Below, piece after piece: positions 24,929 to 32,000 of a stretch of 32,000 nucleotides of DNA. Position numbers and translations under genes: made by a program. The notes below the pieces were generated by a model, which did not search any database, was not told where the DNA came from, and saw only the letters and a program-made list of their open reading frames with translations. How positions within the stretch are numbered: position 1 is the stretch's first letter; the number at the start of each line of letters is the position of its first letter. The DNA comes from Bellilinea caldifistulae (GTDB lineage Bacteria > Chloroflexota > Anaerolineae > Anaerolineales > Anaerolineaceae), in contig NZ_LGHJ01000014.1 in NCBI RefSeq assembly GCF_001306055.1, forward strand, positions 197,724 to 229,723, given 5' to 3'.

Positions 24929-24958
24929 AAACGGGGCTATCCGCAGATAGCCCCGTTT
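24929..24958 (-). terminator. 13-bp stem hairpin after the DhaM-HPr-EI gene (intrinsic terminator candidate)
   Basis: AAACGGGGCTATC (24929..24941) pairs with GATAGCCCCGTTT (24946..24958) around a 4-nt loop. The U-tract is clean on the plus-strand side only (GAGTTTTTG). Confidence 0.5.
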
Positions 24959-24983: not shown

Positions 24984-27512
24984 CTAGCCAACCCCGGGCA
25001 GGCTTTTCAAAAACTCAGCAGCCAGTTGGCGGGTTTGTTGAGCGTTGGCACAGGCGACGGCCTGCCGGGCGATCTGTTGGGCTTTTTCGGTGGTTAATGC
25101 CCGCACAATGGCTTTAACGCGGGGGATGCCGGCTGCATTCACGCTTAATTCGCGCACCCCCAAACCGATCAGAATGGCAACTGCCTCCGGATCACCAGCC
25201 AGTTCGCCGCAAACCCCCACCCATTTCCCGTGTTTTTCGGCAGCCTGAGTGACTTCACCAATCAAGCGTAAGACGGCCGGATGGAGTGCGTCGTTCAGAT
25301 AGTTCAACTGCGGGTTACCGCGTTCGGCTGCCATGGTGTATTGTGTCAGGTCGTTGGTGCCGATGCTGAAGAAGGCAACATGCTCCGCAAGTGCGTCAGC
25401 CACAATCGCCGCGGACGGAATTTCTACCATGATGCCCGTTTCAATCGGCCACCGGTGAGACAATCCTTCCTCTTCCAATTCTGCGTGAATTTTTTCAAGG
25501 AATTGATTGGCTTGCAGTACTTCTTCGATGGTTGCCACCATCGGGAACATGATACGCAGGTGGGTATCCGCGCCAGCGCGCAGAATGGCGCGCAATTGGG
25601 TGCGGAATAGATCGGGTTGCTGCAGGGAAAGGCGTAGAGCGCGCACACCGAGGAAGGGATTGGCTTCCGGCTGCTGGTTTATATAAGGGAGGGGTTTATC
25701 GCCGCCGACATCCAGCGTGCGCACAATGACCGGCTTGCCCTGCAAGGTCATGCCAATCTGGTGAATCGCTTGATACTGCTCCTCTTCGGTTGGGGCCGTT
25801 TGGCGGGTGAGGAAGAGGAATTCGGTGCGCAACAGGCCCACACCGTCCGCACCGTTTTGTACGGCGGTTTGCGCATCGGCCAGATTGCCCACATTAGCGG
25901 CCACTTCAATAGCCAGACCATCCAGTGTGACGGCGGCCTGATGGGTGGAAGCCAGCAGGCGCTGTTTTTCTTCCAGCCAGCGGGTTCGTCGGCTTTCAAA
26001 TTCCTGGCGGGTGGATTCATCCGGTTGGATCAGTACTTCCCCCTTGAATCCATCCAGCGCAGCCAGCGTTTGCTGGGGAATTTGTTTGATGCGGATGGGT
26101 AAACCGGTAACCGCGGGAATGCCCAGCGAACGGGCCAGAATGGCACTGTGGGAAGTAGCCCCGCCGCTGAGCAGAGCAATGCCCTGCACGCGCTCCAGAT
26201 CCAACGAAGCAGTTTCGGTCGGAGTCAGATCGTCTGCCACTAAAATGACCGGCTCGCTGAAGACAATTTTTTGGTGAGCCTCGCCGCTCAATTCACGCAG
26301 GACTTGATTACCGACATCCTGTACATCCACAGCCCGCTGTTTGAGGTAGTCATCGGATAGTGCCTTAAAACGGGCAACAATCGTATCCACGCTTTCCTTC
26401 CAGGCGCGGGCAGCGTTGTATTGCTTTTCCGTGATTAACGAGCGGGCATTTTCCAGCAATTCCTCATCACTCAGCAGGAGTGCATGGGCTTCGAAGATGG
26501 CGGCTTCTTCTTCACCAACCCGATTGACCATTTCACGCTGGCGATCAAGGATGGCACGCCGTACTTTTTCCAGCGCAGTCTGTAATTTTTGCCACTCTGC
26601 CTCGGTGTCTTGTGCCTCGTAATCCGGAATCAGGGGGGGCAAGCTTTCGTAATGAAAAATGGGAGCAACGGCCACTCCTTCGGAAACCGGTAACCCACGC
26701 AGGATGCGTTCATCAGAAGGTTGTGGTTCGGGCATCTGCGGGGTGGGTTTTAGCGGTGGTGGTGCAGCGGCTTCTCCAAACCGCTCCTCCACCAGATTGG
26801 AAAGAGCCTGAAGGGCCTCGGCGGCTTGTTCACCCTGTGCCTGAATCTGGATTTGGTGCCCGTGCAGCGCGCCGAGGGTTGCCAGGGCGTTCAGACTTTT
26901 GGCGGAAACCGCTGCACTGCCGGTGGTCAGATTGGTTACCCGAATGTCCGCTTTGAAGCGGGAGGCGGTTTGCACAAAACGGGCAGCCGGCCGGGCGTGC
27001 AAACCATGGGCATTGGTCAGTTCCAGCACGACGGTGTGAAGTTCGCCGGCTGGGGGGAGCGGGGCGGGTGCTTCAACGGCAACAGGCAGCGGGGCGGGTT
27101 CGCTGAAATGCAACTGCTCGGCTTTGGGTTGGAGAGCCTGACAGGCTTCGCGGCAAATGGTTTGCGGATCATTACCCAAACTTGCCTGTACACCGGCGGC
27201 AATGGCGCCTTCTACCAGCGGAGCGGGGCAAAAGTGAACCCGGCTGCGCACCTCTTCAGGCAGCAGTTCCATTGCCATTTCTGCGCTGAGGATGGCACTG
27301 CCCAAATCCATCAGGACGAGGATGCCATCGGGGCTGTCGACTTCCTGGATGACCTGGGCAATTTGGGTGGCGTCGGTGCCAAAATCATCATGATTTTCAC
27401 CTGCACCAGCTGCCACACCAATTTTGACCTCCTCGCCGGCCATCTGGCGCACCAGATGTACCAGTGATTCAGCCAGCAGTTTGCTGTGCGAAACCAGAAC
27501 CAGACTCACCAT
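24984..27512 (-). CDS. ptsI: triple-fusion phosphotransferase: DhaM-type EIIA(Man)-like domain + HPr domain + full-length PTS Enzyme I
   Basis: 842 aa. MVSLVLVSHSKLLAE...VLMDLGSAILSAE is the DhaM N-domain. TNAHGLHARPAARFV is HPr. GGATSHSAILARSLGIPAV, FFSIGTNDLTQY and VGVCGELAGD are EI. Pro/Ala-rich linkers separate the domains. Confidence 0.85.
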   Translation of the reverse strand: MVSLVLVSHSKLLAESLVHLVRQMAGEEVKIGVAAGAGENHDDFGTDATQIAQVIQEVDSPDGILVLMDLGSAILSAEMAMELLPEEVRSRVHFCPAPLVEGAIAAGVQASLGNDPQTICREACQALQPKAEQLHFSEPAPLPVAVEAPAPLPPAGELHTVVLELTNAHGLHARPAARFVQTASRFKADIRVTNLTTGSAAVSAKSLNALATLGALHGHQIQIQAQGEQAAEALQALSNLVEERFGEAAAPPPLKPTPQMPEPQPSDERILRGLPVSEGVAVAPIFHYESLPPLIPDYEAQDTEAEWQKLQTALEKVRRAILDRQREMVNRVGEEEAAIFEAHALLLSDEELLENARSLITEKQYNAARAWKESVDTIVARFKALSDDYLKQRAVDVQDVGNQVLRELSGEAHQKIVFSEPVILVADDLTPTETASLDLERVQGIALLSGGATSHSAILARSLGIPAVTGLPIRIKQIPQQTLAALDGFKGEVLIQPDESTRQEFESRRTRWLEEKQRLLASTHQAAVTLDGLAIEVAANVGNLADAQTAVQNGADGVGLLRTEFLFLTRQTAPTEEEQYQAIHQIGMTLQGKPVIVRTLDVGGDKPLPYINQQPEANPFLGVRALRLSLQQPDLFRTQLRAILRAGADTHLRIMFPMVATIEEVLQANQFLEKIHAELEEEGLSHRWPIETGIMVEIPSAAIVADALAEHVAFFSIGTNDLTQYTMAAERGNPQLNYLNDALHPAVLRLIGEVTQAAEKHGKWVGVCGELAGDPEAVAILIGLGVRELSVNAAGIPRVKAIVRALTTEKAQQIARQAVACANAQQTRQLAAEFLKSLPGVG

Positions 27513-27533: not shown

Positions 27534-27911
27534 CTACACTCCGAAATTAATGACCGCAAACAGCAACCAGATGCCGTATGCGGTTGCAAACAGACCGACG
27601 GCGATAAAGAGATAATCGAGGACTTTCAATACAGCCGGACTGGGACGAAGGTCAAGGATGATGCTGCGCGAACCGATCAAGGAATGTGCCACCACAAAAA
27701 CGAGGAAAAAACCTTCCATGATTGGGACAATCGGGTAATTGCGGTAGTAAGCAACCACTTCGGCGTGACTGAGCAGGCCGTTAGGGGCAAACAGGTGATT
27801 AACCAGAAAATGGATGATCAGCACCGCAAGGATCAAAACCCCGCTGACAATTTTGATCAGCCACAACAGGTAACTTTCACCGGGTTTGGGTTGAGAGAGG
27901 GTGTTTTGCAT
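27534..27911 (-). CDS. SdhD-like 3-TM membrane anchor subunit
   Basis: 125 aa with three hydrophobic helices and the motif AHSLIGSRSIILD (H-x3-G-x-R...D) in helix 2. It lies 15 nt downstream of the SdhC-like gene. Confidence 0.5.
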   Translation of the reverse strand: MQNTLSQPKPGESYLLWLIKIVSGVLILAVLIIHFLVNHLFAPNGLLSHAEVVAYYRNYPIVPIMEGFFLVFVVAHSLIGSRSIILDLRPSPAVLKVLDYLFIAVGLFATAYGIWLLFAVINFGV

Positions 27912-27926
27912 GAGATCACCTCCGTC

Positions 27927-28319
27927 CTAGTGGGCTGTGAGCATTCGCACGCCAAAAACGACCGTGCCAATCAGGGTGATTCCAACCACGCCATACAGTA
28001 GCTGGCGTTGGGCGGGTACGGCAATTCCAAAGCTGTTGAGGGCGATGCGAAGGCCGTTGAGACCGTGGTACAAACCGGCGATGATCACCAACATTTCGCC
28101 GAACATGATGGCAGGCTGTTTGGCAGTTTCGATGAAAGCGTCAAATGCTTCGGGCCCTTGTGCCAGTTTGCCCAGCATGTAGAGATGCAGGTACAAGTAA
28201 ACGGTCAACCCGATGGCAGACAGGCGGTTAATGATAAAACCCCATCCGCCAACATTTCTGCCGCGGGGGTCGAACCAGTCTAAAATTCCGCGGGTATTGG
28301 GTTTTTTGGGAGTATCCAT
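27927..28319 (-). CDS. SdhC-like cytochrome b-type 3-TM membrane anchor subunit
   Basis: 130 aa with three helices and the motif LYHGLNGLR (H-x3-G-x-R) in helix 2, as in SdhC/FrdC-type anchors. Confidence 0.5.
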   Translation of the reverse strand: MDTPKKPNTRGILDWFDPRGRNVGGWGFIINRLSAIGLTVYLYLHLYMLGKLAQGPEAFDAFIETAKQPAIMFGEMLVIIAGLYHGLNGLRIALNSFGIAVPAQRQLLYGVVGITLIGTVVFGVRMLTAH

Positions 28320-28341
28320 TCGCTCATTCTCCTGTAAACTT

Positions 28342-29088
28342 CTAGGCTTTTACAAACCAGCGTTTGATGCGTTCACCCACCACCTGACGGCGCAAGTCCA
28401 TAATCCGCCAGCCGGGGTCAACGTTAGAAGGACAAACCGCAGTGCATTCATATGCGCTGTGGCAGCGCCACAGCCCGTCTGCACAGTCCACTAAATCCAG
28501 CAGGTCGGGGTTATGTTTTAGCCCTTGTAGTTGAGCGGCTGCCAGCACTGCCGGCCCAAGGTAGTTTTCGGCTGTACCGGCTACCGGGCAGGCACTGATG
28601 CACAAACCGCATTCAATGCAATCTGCCAGACGCAGATATTCATCCCCGTTGTTGCGTGGGACATCTTTGGGCGGGCGGATACCCTCACCTTCCAGTGGAG
28701 CTGCCGAAAGCGGATGAACCGCTTTGGCGTGGACGCGGTCCATGGCGGCGTACATGCGGGTCATATCCACTACCAGATCGCCAATGATGGGGAAGTTGCG
28801 TAGTGGTTCAATTTTAAGGCTTCCGCCATTGGTGGTCACATCGCGGATTTTGGTGATGCAAGTCAACTTCTCCACATCATTCACTCGCATACCGCAGGCG
28901 CCACAAGTGGAATGGTGGCAGGCATGGGCAAAAATGAGTGAACGATCATGGAATGCCCAGATCCGTTCCACGCCGTCAATCACATATTCGTCCGGATCCA
29001 CTTCCAGCACATAACTATCGTAGCGGGGAGGCTGGTCTCCCTTTTTACGAAAGATGACAAATTTTACCGTCCATTTTTCTTCAGTCAT
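28342..29088 (-). CDS. succinate dehydrogenase/fumarate reductase-type iron-sulfur subunit (SdhB-like, three clusters)
   Basis: 248 aa. CHHSTCGACGMRVNDVEKLTC is the 2Fe-2S pattern C-x4-C-x2-C-x11-C. CIECGLCISACP is the 4Fe-4S pattern. CHSAYECTAVCP is the 3Fe-4S-type C-x5-C-x3-CP. IIGDLVVDM and YLGPAVL are as in SdhB. Confidence 0.8.
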   Translation of the reverse strand: MTEEKWTVKFVIFRKKGDQPPRYDSYVLEVDPDEYVIDGVERIWAFHDRSLIFAHACHHSTCGACGMRVNDVEKLTCITKIRDVTTNGGSLKIEPLRNFPIIGDLVVDMTRMYAAMDRVHAKAVHPLSAAPLEGEGIRPPKDVPRNNGDEYLRLADCIECGLCISACPVAGTAENYLGPAVLAAAQLQGLKHNPDLLDLVDCADGLWRCHSAYECTAVCPSNVDPGWRIMDLRRQVVGERIKRWFVKA

Positions 29089-29132
29089 TGCTCACTCCGT
29101 ACAGATAGAGTTCGTTCAACGAGTCACCCAAC

Positions 29133-30296
29133 TCAGTTGACGTAGAACTTGCGGTAAGAGAGAAGGGGAGTTTCGGCGGTGGTGCAGGGGATGTTCAGGT
29201 TAAATTTCTTACAAATTAAATCCACGGTCTTTTCCGCCATCAAGCGCAGGGTGGTGGCTTTTCCGCCGGTAATGGTCACCAAACCCTCGACATTATCGGT
29301 TTCTTTGTGGTCATAGGCTTTGAAGGTCCGGGAAATGCTGCGGCCGGGAGCGGAAGCGCCGATTAAGGGGCGAGTAGCCATATAAGCCCCGCGTTCTTTG
29401 GTCTGGCGCAGAGCCGGGATCAGATTCGAGCCGCGTTCGATCATCAGTTGAACGTGATCTTCGTAGACCGGCACATAATCAGGATCTTCGATGGTGAAGG
29501 AAGTTGTGCCGACGACCATCATGCGCCGTTGAGGGAGGACAATGTCGCCATCACCGGGTTTGTTCAATAGATTGATGGCACGCTGGGTTAAGCGTTGGTC
29601 ATAGGCAACCATTACGCCGGGGGTGGGGGTAATTGGAACTGAAATACCCGCCATGGAAGTGATATGACCCACCCAGGCTCCCGTGGCATTGACGACAATA
29701 TCGCCGCGAATCTCAAATCGCTTGTCGGTGGCGCGGTCCCAGGCTTTAACTCCGACGATGTTACCCTGTCCATCGGTGAGCAGGTCAACCACATCGGTAT
29801 AGAGATGGAACACAGCCCCGTTCGATTTGGCGGAAGCGGCAAATGCCAGTGCCAAACGCAGTGGATCGAATGTTCCGTCCGGCACGGTGAAAGCCGTCTG
29901 CAGTTTAGGGTTGAGGTTGGGCTCCAGGCGCAAGGCTTCCTGGGGGGTTAATTCCTTGATCGGAATTCTGCAGGCAGCGCAGCCCTCGATGAATTTTTCC
30001 CGATAGGCCATATCTTCGTCGGTGATGCCGATGAACAACCCTCCGTTTGGTTCAATGGCATCCGGCACAATCAGGCGCAGGATTTGATTTTCCTGAATGC
30101 ACTCGATGGCTGATTCCTGATCGTTGACGGCATAACGTGCGCCGGAGTGAAGCAGCCCATGCGTGCGGCCTGATGTGCCATTGACGATTGGACCCCGTTC
30201 CACAACCGTAACTGCAAAACCGCGCAGCGCCAGGTCATGGGCGATTGCGACTCCGGTGAAACCGGCACCAATCACAATGGCATGGAGTTTACTCAT
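29133..30296 (-). CDS. glpA: GlpA-type FAD-dependent glycerol-3-phosphate dehydrogenase flavoprotein, lacking the C-terminal BFD-like domain
   Basis: AIVIGAGFTGVAIAHDLALRG and NGTSGRTHGLLHSGARYAVNDQESAIECIQENQIL closely parallel the anaerobic G3P dehydrogenase subunit A signature. VTITGGKATTLRLMAE lies near the C-terminus. The start is at the ATG at 30296 (AGGAGA Shine-Dalgarno sequence). The ORF extends to 30344. Confidence 0.8.
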   Translation of the reverse strand: MSKLHAIVIGAGFTGVAIAHDLALRGFAVTVVERGPIVNGTSGRTHGLLHSGARYAVNDQESAIECIQENQILRLIVPDAIEPNGGLFIGITDEDMAYREKFIEGCAACRIPIKELTPQEALRLEPNLNPKLQTAFTVPDGTFDPLRLALAFAASAKSNGAVFHLYTDVVDLLTDGQGNIVGVKAWDRATDKRFEIRGDIVVNATGAWVGHITSMAGISVPITPTPGVMVAYDQRLTQRAINLLNKPGDGDIVLPQRRMMVVGTTSFTIEDPDYVPVYEDHVQLMIERGSNLIPALRQTKERGAYMATRPLIGASAPGRSISRTFKAYDHKETDNVEGLVTITGGKATTLRLMAEKTVDLICKKFNLNIPCTTAETPLLSYRKFYVN

Positions 30297-30395: not shown

Positions 30396-30647
30396 TTATT
30401 TCCTTCTGCGAAGCAGGCGGTTGATGAGCAGGAAGAATAAGAAGACCAGCCAGATGCTTCCACCAAATACGACGCCCCACAGGATGCGTTCGAGAAGCGG
30501 CAGTTCCGGGTTGCTGGTGATGACCGTCCAGATTGCCAGTAAGATGCTGACGATACCCACTACGATTAAACCGGTTTTAAAGGGAATCCAGGGTTGGGCA
30601 GTCAATTCCTGGGGCTGATTTTTGGAGGAGGGTTTATTTTTGGACAT
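30396..30647 (-). CDS. hypothetical small 2-TM membrane protein
   Basis: 83 aa from the ATG at 30647 (MSKNKPSSKNQ...), with two hydrophobic helices and a basic C-terminus RLLRRRK. I recognise no family. The longer ORF to 30782 would run through the promoter and terminator region. Confidence 0.4.
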   Translation of the reverse strand: MSKNKPSSKNQPQELTAQPWIPFKTGLIVVGIVSILLAIWTVITSNPELPLLERILWGVVFGGSIWLVFLFFLLINRLLRRRK

Positions 30648-30845: not shown

Positions 30846-31937
30846 TTAAACTTCGACCCAGCCGAAAGTGCGCTCGACGGCTTTCTTCCAGCCTGCGTAC
30901 AGTTTTTCCCGTTCTTCGGGAGCCATCTTGGGATGCCATTCGGCGTCTTTGCCCCAGTTGGCGCGCAGTTCGTCAAAGTTGCTCCAGAAGCCAACCGCCA
31001 GACCAGCTGCGTAAGCAGCACCCAGGGAGGTGGTTTCGGCAACTTTCGGGCGGATAACCGGCACGCCGAGGATATCGGCCTGGAATTGCATGAGCAATTC
31101 GTTGTACACCATACCACCATCCACCTTGAGGGCGGTCAGCGGTACGCCGGAGTCTTTGTTCATCGCGTCCAGCACCTCGCGGGTCTGGTAAGCGGTGGCT
31201 TCCAGTGCGGCGCGGGCGATGTGACCGCGGTTGATGTAGCGGGTCAGGCCGACAATGACACCGCGGGCGTCGCTGCGCCAGTACGGTGCAAACAGACCGG
31301 AGAAGGCCGGCACAAAGTAAATGCCGCCATTGTCTTCCACCGTGCGAGCCAGCGGTTCAATGTCCTTGGAGTTTTCAATCATCTTCAAGTTGTCGCGCAG
31401 CCACTGCACCAATGCACCGGTGATGGCGATGGAGCCTTCCAGGCAGTAGACAGCTGGTTGATTGCCGATCTTGTAGCCCAGGGTGGTCAGCAAACCACTC
31501 TTGCTGGGGACCGGTTTGGTGCCGGTGTTGAGCAGCATGAAGCAGCCCGTACCGTAGGTGTTCTTGGCTTCGCCGGGGTCGTAGCAGGCCTGACCGAAGA
31601 GGGCGGCTTGTTGATCGCCAAGGTCACCGGCGACCGGAATGCCCTCAAGGGCGCCGCGGGCATGACCATACACTTCGGAGGACGGGCGAACGGCGGGCAG
31701 CATGGCACGCGGAATGCCCATCAGTTTGAGGATTTCATCGTCCCAGTCCAGCGTTTCGAGGTTCATCAGCATGGTGCGGGAGGCATTGGACACGTCGGTG
31801 ACATGCACGCCGCCCTGCGGGCCGCCGGTCAGGTTCCAGATGACCCAGGTGTCAATGTTACCAAAGAGGACTTGAGAGAGTTGAAAAATCAAGCGTAATA
31901 CGCCGAGCAGGCTGTTTGAGGGGTGGAAAAGCCGCAC
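30846..31937 (-). CDS. glpK: glycerol kinase, N-terminally truncated or interrupted (possible pseudogene)
   Basis: From [16 protein letters not shown]...[15 protein letters not shown] through [10 protein letters not shown] to the C-terminal [11 protein letters not shown], the ORF is collinear with GlpK residues ~135 to the end. The first ~20 codons of the ORF (31875..31937, GTG start) and all three frames upstream show no GlpK similarity. Confidence 0.75.
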
Positions 31938-32000
31938 CCGATGGGGTATCCACCCTAAAATAAAGGGGCTGTGTATCTTGATTTGACCTCTTCACCTCCA

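Follow-up and report, generated by a model that had tools for sequence, protein, structure and literature searches.

A predicted glycerol-3-phosphate:quinone oxidoreductase built on a complex II chassis in Bellilinea caldifistulae and other bacteria

Four co-directional genes on the minus strand of a 32,000-nucleotide (nt) stretch of the Bellilinea caldifistulae genome (hereafter the window, to which all statements on genes missing from it refer) probably encode a membrane-bound glycerol-3-phosphate:(mena)quinone oxidoreductase on a complex II chassis. In this predicted enzyme a truncated GlpA-type flavoprotein (GlpA') would deliver electrons to an SdhB-like iron-sulfur subunit (SdhB') and two SdhC/SdhD-like membrane anchors (SdhC' and SdhD'). 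The same assignment had been put forward in an earlier note made from the letters of this DNA, and it is now supported by conserved synteny, natural gene fusions, the lack of a nearby SdhA and the conservation of cofactor ligands, so that we put its probability at about 80%. From these lines of evidence we infer that the four proteins form a physical complex, that it oxidises glycerol-3-phosphate (G3P) and how its electrons travel, as well as its haem content and its quinone acceptor.

In the proposed mechanism, GlpK would phosphorylate glycerol, and the FAD of GlpA', a DAO-fold member of the GlpA lineage now devoid of the C-terminal BFD/[2Fe-2S] region, would oxidise sn-glycerol-3-phosphate to dihydroxyacetone phosphate (DHAP). 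Electrons would then travel through the [2Fe-2S], [4Fe-4S] and [3Fe-4S] clusters of SdhB' to the SdhC'/SdhD' anchor with its haem bP (and bD), where a quinone, presumably menaquinone (MK), would be reduced. The N-terminal [2Fe-2S] domain of SdhB' may reasonably be supposed to replace the lost BFD cluster. Given textbook midpoint potentials of about -190 mV for DHAP/G3P and about -74 mV for MK/MKH2, electron transfer from G3P to menaquinone would be exergonic.

The flavoprotein belongs to the GlpA lineage

Compared with the NCBIfam models, GlpA' scored 445 bits against the GlpA model TIGR03377 (E 2.9e-133, profile positions 2-378 of 530), in contrast to 99 bits against the best GlpD model (cutoff 360) and no more than that against GlpO, ThiO, DadA and LhgO. 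The score lies under the TIGR03377 equivalog cutoff of 552.8, a shortfall explained by the 150 C-terminal profile positions that are missing in GlpA'. Pfam recognised the DAO domain alone, with neither Fer2_BFD nor DAO_C, which bears out the earlier description of this gene product as a GlpA-type flavoprotein devoid of the BFD domain. Among the longer homologues, the nearest ones (538-569 aa) have DAO_C and/or Fer2_BFD in the stretch from about residue 373 to 494, and those of ~1000 aa possess an additional GlpB-like FAD_binding_2 half. The stop directly after the CTTAE segment in GlpA' therefore reflects a real truncation. The protein ends in a conserved tail, C-T-T-A-E-T-P-L-L-S-Y-R-K-F-Y, about 12 residues past the CxT motif; a tail of this kind (LLSYRKFY or LLPHTAYY) is common to the short forms, whereas long GlpA proteins are devoid of it, and we propose it as a candidate docking element. 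The GlpA signature GRxHGLLHSGARYAVxD...ECxxEN is present and invariant in the alignments, as are R54, R309 and K346, which align to the GGLRY, RPL and GGK motifs of GlpD/GlpO, positions that we assume to bind the phosphate or the substrate.

An exhaustive search of 1.84 billion cluster representatives yielded 468 clusters at E <= 1e-30. GlpA' is 97% identical to its counterpart in a Bellilinea sp. metagenome-assembled genome (MAG), 89% to that of Thermanaerothrix solaris and 84% to that of Anaerolinea thermophila UNI-1, which places the window in an Anaerolineaceae bacterium (Chloroflexota). Among the 468 clusters, short forms rank first, with identities of 59, 52, 48 and 47%, and canonical long GlpA comes next with 45-47%. 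A midpoint-rooted neighbour-joining (NJ) tree of 155 sequences, calculated without support values, placed all SdhB-linked short forms in one clade next to canonical GlpA and apart from long GlpA, from GlpA-GlpB fusions and from a group of 420-440 aa, both looked-up members of which were archaeal. One basal short-form member (P0181) has no SdhB neighbour. Cluster look-ups of the basal short forms gave no archaeal SdhB-linked names, and a profile search started from four basal short-form representatives returned bacterial or unnamed proteins and no archaeal names. The AlphaFold2 (AF2) model of GlpA', built on a 77-sequence alignment, reached a predicted local distance difference test score (pLDDT) of 90.8 and a predicted template modelling score (pTM) of 0.90. 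Its best matching folds in the Protein Data Bank (PDB) were E. coli GlpD, Streptococcus GlpO and Bacillus halodurans GlpD (TMq 0.73-0.83), with GlpD/GlpO at the top at TMq 0.81-0.83, while glycine oxidase and other DAO-fold enzymes ranked after them. By profile scores (445 vs <=99 bits) and the NJ clade, the flavoprotein groups with GlpA and not with other DAO-family oxidases, and its fold neighbours are G3P dehydrogenases and oxidases of the GlpD and GlpO kind.

SdhB' carries the ligands of three iron-sulfur clusters

SdhB' scored 157 bits against the generic dhsB model TIGR00384 (cutoff 88), matched Pfam Fer2_3 and Fer4_8, and aligned to E. coli FrdB (1kf6_B) with E 1.3e-29, but fell under the cutoff of every SdhB/FrdB equivalog model. 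The cysteine pattern noticed earlier is complete, with all 11 ligands for three clusters present: C57-x4-C62-x2-C65-x11-C77, C157-x2-C160-x2-C163-x3-C167-P and C209-x5-C215-x3-C219-P. Each of these cysteines is kept in 74-76 of 76 module copies. The SdhB-like open reading frames (ORFs) of three Solirubrobacterales-type Actinomycetota loci (L013 6980-8890, L016 7025-8773 and L022 7104-8777) are much longer (557-636 aa), owing to some 300 additional C-terminal residues that include cysteines and match no Pfam family; no SdhC/SdhD gene follows them, and ORF limits are uncertain in these high-GC genomes.

The membrane anchor is most likely of the dihaem type

Both anchor proteins match Pfam Sdh_cyt (SdhC' 51.8 bits, SdhD' 32.1 bits), contain three hydrophobic segments each and carry the H-x3-G-x-R motif in helix 2 (H85 in SdhC', H76 in SdhD'), so that the initial reading of genes 3 and 4 as SdhC/SdhD-like proteins with three transmembrane (TM) helices holds. 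That reading had noted only the helix-2 histidines and had missed a further invariant histidine in helix 1 of each anchor (SdhC' H45, SdhD' H34). Across 56 module copies, SdhC' H45 is kept in 56 and H85 in 55, while H34, H39 and H76 of SdhD' are each kept in all 56. The invariance of helix-1 and helix-2 histidines in both anchors makes two haems likely, not one.

The best PDB match of SdhC' was chain C of the M. smegmatis succinate dehydrogenase Sdh2 (6lum_C, E 3.3e-12), a type-A dihaem succinate:menaquinone reductase (PMC7447783). In the alignment with 6LUM_C, H45 and H85 of SdhC' fall on HisC47 and HisC87, the ligand positions of haems bD and bP, and H34 and H76 of SdhD' fall on the same two ligand positions. 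The spacing between H34 and H76 in SdhD' (42 residues) equals that between HisD65 and HisD107 of Sdh2, and H34 and H76 are presumed to be the second ligands of haems bD and bP. We consider SdhC'/SdhD' most likely a two-subunit, six-helix, dihaem anchor resembling type A. Two further residues, SdhC' R32 and SdhD' D87, are conserved in the module copies; we take them to correspond to the quinone-site residues Arg31 of E. coli SdhC and Asp82 of SdhD in the E. coli succinate:quinone reductase. A Rieske-type membrane cluster as in the type-F enzyme Sdh1 of M. smegmatis (PMC8054011) was also considered and rejected, because SdhC' and SdhD' contain no cysteine and the matched 6LUM_C belongs to the dihaem type-A enzyme Sdh2.

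The gene order is conserved across several phyla

The four ORFs of the module occupy positions 27534-30296 of the window, with measured gaps of 44, 22 and 15 nt, in line with the 15-44 nt first reported. With one genome per species scanned, at least 598 GlpA-like loci were obtained, of which the best 80 were kept for locus counts, and the ORFs called in these 80 loci were compared with the window proteins. In 74 of the 77 informative species-level loci, sdhB' lies next to a short glpA': its start is no more than 400 nt after the glpA' stop in 71 loci, and single loci have it at 598 nt, fused to glpA', or upstream of glpA' together with sdhC' and sdhD'. Two other loci have a contig end at glpA' and one contains a canonical long GlpA; sdhB' is absent in three loci (two Thermoflexales MAGs and one unclassified Chloroflexota MAG). 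The adjacency, which the earlier note had asked to see in related genomes, thus spans Chloroflexota, Actinomycetota, Planctomycetota, Desulfobacterota and Spirochaetota, and the two genes often overlap or nearly abut. Both anchor genes, sdhC' and sdhD', come next in 53 loci, which belong to Chloroflexota, to Actinomycetota (among them Solirubrobacterales, Streptosporangiaceae and Cellulomonas) and to a Planctomycetaceae MAG. In Anaerolinea thermophila, the block glpK-glpA'-sdhB'-sdhC'-sdhD' sits between wholly different flanks.

A true glpK (>60% identity; 72-91% to that of the window) is found directly upstream in 41 loci, which supports the glycerol kinase context that had been invoked for G3P as the substrate; the window's own glpK is 5'-truncated at codon 158. 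No SdhA/FrdA flavoprotein had been seen adjacent to the module, and this was corroborated by Pfam and by tblastn with E. coli SdhA, which gave no match at E <= 1e-3 in the window and 83 further loci (929 kb); the query itself had been validated against 1NEK_A (1362 bits, essentially identical). No SdhA-like gene therefore lies within ~6 kb of any of the 84 modules.

In a Streptosporangiaceae MAG (L051 8791-10500), a canonical long GlpA with BFD domain (569 aa) directly follows a short glpA'-sdhB'C'D' module, indicating that both types of G3P dehydrogenase can coexist side by side. Beside the module in three Chloroflexota loci (L068, L076 and L078) there is an FGGY kinase only ~30% identical to GlpK, and the flavoprotein substrate in this subclade may differ.

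Natural fusions and anchor-less forms

In Cellulomonas sp. T2.31MG-18, a single ORF of 712 aa comprises DAO (14-368), a low-complexity linker, Fer2_3 (461-563) and Fer4_8 (600-672). This DAO+Fer2_3+Fer4_8 arrangement recurs in at least 31 sequence clusters, 67-96% identical to the 712-aa query, of which 30 are 664-752 aa long and one is shorter (P0346, 570 aa); the isolates among them include Cellulomonas (SG140, P24), Pengzhenrongella phosphoraccumulans, Isoptericola and Actinotalea. Two Sdh_cyt genes come after the fusion gene in Cellulomonas sp. P24, the first of them overlapping it. Such natural fusions, read as classical Rosetta stone evidence, indicate a joint function of the GlpA-like and SdhB-like proteins as a single unit. 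At two fusion loci (L055 5917-8055 and L084 7001-9067) the low-complexity linker measures ~55-70 aa and two Sdh_cyt genes follow.

A different variant, glpA' with sdhB' alone, occurs in Desulfobacterota (including Nitratidesulfovibrio isolates), Spirochaetota, a Bacteriovoracaceae MAG and "Bacterium UASB14" (loci L052, L057, L059, L062, L063, L065-L067, L069-L071, L074, L077 and L079-L082). At these loci, neither an SdhC/SdhD homologue nor a clearly hydrophobic ORF follows the two genes, which may encode a soluble two-subunit form or have their anchor encoded elsewhere.

Alternative readings

SdhB', SdhC' and SdhD' could belong to an ordinary succinate:quinone or quinol:fumarate oxidoreductase. 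Its SdhA/FrdA would then be encoded at another place in the genome, and the GlpA-like gene would be no more than a neighbour, for instance for co-regulation. Public annotation indeed names all three as succinate dehydrogenase/fumarate reductase subunits, SdhB' passes the generic TIGR00384 cutoff, and the window shows only part of the genome. Canonical sdh/frd operons, however, keep sdhA beside sdhB, and a distant SdhA partner is made highly improbable by the lack of SdhA in the 929 kb around the 84 modules together with the covalent GlpA'::SdhB' fusions, to which can be added the equivalog cutoffs that SdhB' fails to reach and a glpA'-sdhB' order maintained in at least five phyla. It is also conceivable that the complex exists but that its flavoprotein acts on an amine, a 2-hydroxy acid or a phosphorylated polyol other than G3P, a notion fed by the sub-cutoff GlpA score, by the divergent kinases of L068, L076 and L078 and by a Met in GlpA' at the helix/strand position occupied by His in GlpD-type enzymes. 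The score is accounted for by the missing C-terminal positions, though, and E. coli GlpA is not known to carry the GlpD-type His either. Considering in addition the 45-47% identity to canonical long GlpA, the invariant signature and Arg/Lys positions and the true glpK directly upstream in 41 loci, we judge a different substrate improbable.

The electron acceptor deserves the same scrutiny, since a GlpA'+SdhB' G3P dehydrogenase might instead pass electrons across the membrane via the haems to a different partner or, in some lineages, act as a soluble two-subunit enzyme. The anchor-less pairs of Desulfobacterota and Spirochaetota would fit such a scheme, the hosts are likely anaerobes, and dihaem anchors of this kind support transmembrane electron transfer (PMC7447783). 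On the other hand, the closest solved anchor is that of a menaquinone reductase, and R32 of SdhC' and D87 of SdhD', which we take to match the E. coli quinone site, are conserved; we give a non-quinone acceptor little chance of being correct. Several points nonetheless weigh against the G3P:(mena)quinone oxidoreductase that we favour. This enzyme class, archaeal or bacterial, is known from genes and models alone, and we know of no docking mode of a DAO-fold protein on SdhB. The AF2 model of the Cellulomonas fusion, used as a proxy for the interface and built on a 25-sequence alignment, reached only pLDDT 54 and pTM 0.48. The grouping in the NJ tree carries no support values, the absence of SdhA from B. 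caldifistulae covers the 32-kb window and not the rest of the genome, and the truncated glpK means that the kinase context is damaged here or the assembly chimeric. Moreover, the anchor-less pairs imply that quinone coupling is not universal in the family, and the close relatives of the host are strict anaerobic fermenters, which calls the route of menaquinol re-oxidation into question.

Genomic neighbourhood of the module

The features of the region are compiled in Table 1. An AGGAG Shine-Dalgarno sequence lies ~8 nt upstream of the glpA' ATG at 30296, and this start agrees with the one called for the orthologue in Anaerolinea thermophila (386 aa). Pfam searches with the four proteins and 20 further window ORFs, the latter being housekeeping and polysaccharide genes, detected no GlpB, GlpC or SdhA, so that the absence of glpB and glpC homologues from the window, as already remarked, is upheld.

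Table 1. Positions of the module genes and adjoining features in the window.
Feature	Position	Strand	Description
glpA'	29133..30296	-	387 aa from ATG; truncated GlpA-type FAD flavoprotein, predicted G3P-oxidising subunit
sdhB'	28342..29088	-	248 aa; SdhB/FrdB-type iron-sulfur subunit with ligands for [2Fe-2S], [4Fe-4S] and [3Fe-4S]
sdhC'	27927..28319	-	130 aa; 3-TM membrane anchor subunit, Pfam Sdh_cyt
sdhD'	27534..27911	-	125 aa; second 3-TM anchor subunit, Pfam Sdh_cyt
Small ORF between glpK and glpA'	30399..30647	-	83 aa; two hydrophobic helices
glpK, 3' two-thirds only	30846..31874	-	Corresponds to residues 158-498 of a 498-aa glycerol kinase
Flank unrelated to glpK; breakpoint inside glpK	31875..32000		No glpK homology in any frame
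Fused DhaM(EIIA-man)-HPr-Enzyme I gene	24984..27512	-	842 aa; 21 nt downstream of sdhD'
G+C-rich hairpin, 13 bp	24929..24958		After the dhaM-type gene

The small ORF between glpK and glpA' has two TM segments and no Pfam match. Homologues found with a hidden Markov model (HMM) are present in nine other module loci of Anaerolineae, Ardenticatenaceae and other Chloroflexota, where they sit before glpA' or directly 3' of sdhD' (L012, L015, L019, L027 and L064). Its product might serve as an additional membrane subunit, in loose analogy to SdhF of M. smegmatis Sdh2.

The remaining part of glpK is well preserved, with 534 bits against the GlpK model NF000756 over profile positions 159-499 and 91% identity to Thermanaerothrix GlpK from residue 158 onward. 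The homology begins abruptly at this residue (window position 31874), with an in-frame stop upstream, and no glpK homology was found upstream of the breakpoint, either in any frame or in any related locus. The stretch 31873-32000 is 98% identical to the metagenome contig Ga0226835_1000077 (L085 106-233), on which it lies upstream of an ORF for a predicted membrane protein of 217 aa that looks DedA-like by eye. As no Rfam match was obtained at the window end (31600-32000), nothing points to an intron at the breakpoint. This junction stems either from a true rearrangement (or pseudogene) or from a chimeric assembly.

The fusion gene downstream of sdhD' contains the Pfam domains EIIA-man, PTS-HPr, PEP-utilisers_N, PEP-utilizers and PEP-utilizers_C and also matches TIGR02364 and TIGR01417. 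It belongs to the glycerol/dihydroxyacetone context, outside the enzyme itself, and in 35 of the 80 loci the module is followed by a DhaM-type homologue. Despite this DhaM-type gene, neither DhaK nor DhaL is encoded in the window. The hairpin after it is the sole strong terminator-like structure downstream of the gene string; a promoter and terminator scan of the region gave site counts equal to those of shuffled sequences, so that the hairpin is weak terminator evidence and the scan says little on operon structure.

Relation to known systems and implications

The earlier note knew of no description of this subunit composition, but its novelty does not hold because GlpA-SdhBCD was predicted in 2025 in an analysis of archaeal G3P dehydrogenases (Schmerling et al., 2025, Commun Biol 8:539, PMC11962113). 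There, Tpen_1127 of Thermofilum pendens, a GlpA with almost no C-terminal extension, is followed by SdhB-, SdhC- and SdhD-like genes; the reconstructed "GlpA-SdhBCD (T. pendens)" complex is drawn in Fig. 9b and was proposed for membrane anchoring and electron transfer on the basis of synteny and AlphaFold monomers. The B. caldifistulae module agrees with it in that GlpA' has essentially no C-terminal extension and sdhB'C'D'-type genes directly follow. In contrast to the archaeal case, which is confined to a small group (Thermofilales), the module described here is bacterial and widespread and includes fusions and anchor-less variants. For Bacteria, the same study states that glpA consistently co-occurs with glpB and glpC, and we found nothing relevant in the literature on a bacterial form of the module or on the quinone and complex II content of Anaerolineae. 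New here are the broad bacterial distribution, the fusions, the lack of SdhA around the copies, the ligand pattern for two haems, the forms without an anchor and a candidate extra subunit.

With GlpABC of the E. coli type, the module shares a DAO-fold catalytic domain of the same lineage (TIGR03377), the glpK/glycerol context and presumed quinone reduction, whereas it has no DAO_C/BFD region, no GlpB and no GlpC, and would use SdhB and a dihaem anchor as its electron wire. Sdh2 (PDB 6LUM) resembles it in the three-cluster SdhB and in two 3-TM anchors with His at the bP and bD positions; its flavoprotein, however, is an SdhA (FAD_binding_2 and Succ_DH_flav_C) acting on succinate, while that of the window is a GlpA relative predicted to act on G3P, and no SdhF-like gene as in Sdh2 was identified for the module. 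As regards membership in complex II, the SdhB/FrdB subunit is present, but the SdhA/FrdA catalytic subunit was not found in the window or in the 83 loci. The biochemically characterised GlpA-CoxG of Sulfolobus acidocaldarius (Saci_2032/2031) is likewise of the truncated GlpA lineage, without GlpB/GlpC and with a non-canonical membrane partner; it differs in that its CoxG-like anchor has no Fe-S clusters or haem and that the enzyme has a helical tail of ~50 aa.

In public annotation, for Anaerolinea thermophila as well as elsewhere, SdhB', SdhC' and SdhD' go under the name of succinate dehydrogenase/fumarate reductase, while the flavoprotein is given as a generic FAD-dependent oxidoreductase. 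With such labels, anyone who reconstructs the metabolism of Chloroflexota or Actinomycetota can wrongly deduce a partial complex II and overlook a G3P dehydrogenase. In the loci analysed here, the SdhB-linked short form extends beyond the small archaeal group of the 2025 description to many bacterial lineages in several phyla. We surmise, with somewhat better than even confidence, that the Fe-S/dihaem module of complex II acts as a portable cassette for quinone reduction, onto which bacteria have put a DAO-fold G3P dehydrogenase as a new head. The outcome would be a widespread respiratory class with a conserved docking tail of its own (LLxYRxFY / LLPHTAYY), with variants that are fused or consist of two soluble subunits and, in Anaerolineae, with the two-helix protein of 83 aa as an extra subunit. 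If this is true, the label 'succinate dehydrogenase' would be wrong for many genes of Chloroflexota, Actinomycetota and other phyla, and these abundant environmental bacteria would respire glycerol by way of this enzyme. The enzyme would be a case of module exchange in which the electron wire of complex II serves a flavoprotein of a different fold family. It raises the questions of how a DAO-fold protein docks onto SdhB and of whether the dihaem anchor makes G3P oxidation electrogenic or not, and the GlpA'::SdhB' fusions offer a natural handle for structural work on such an enzyme.

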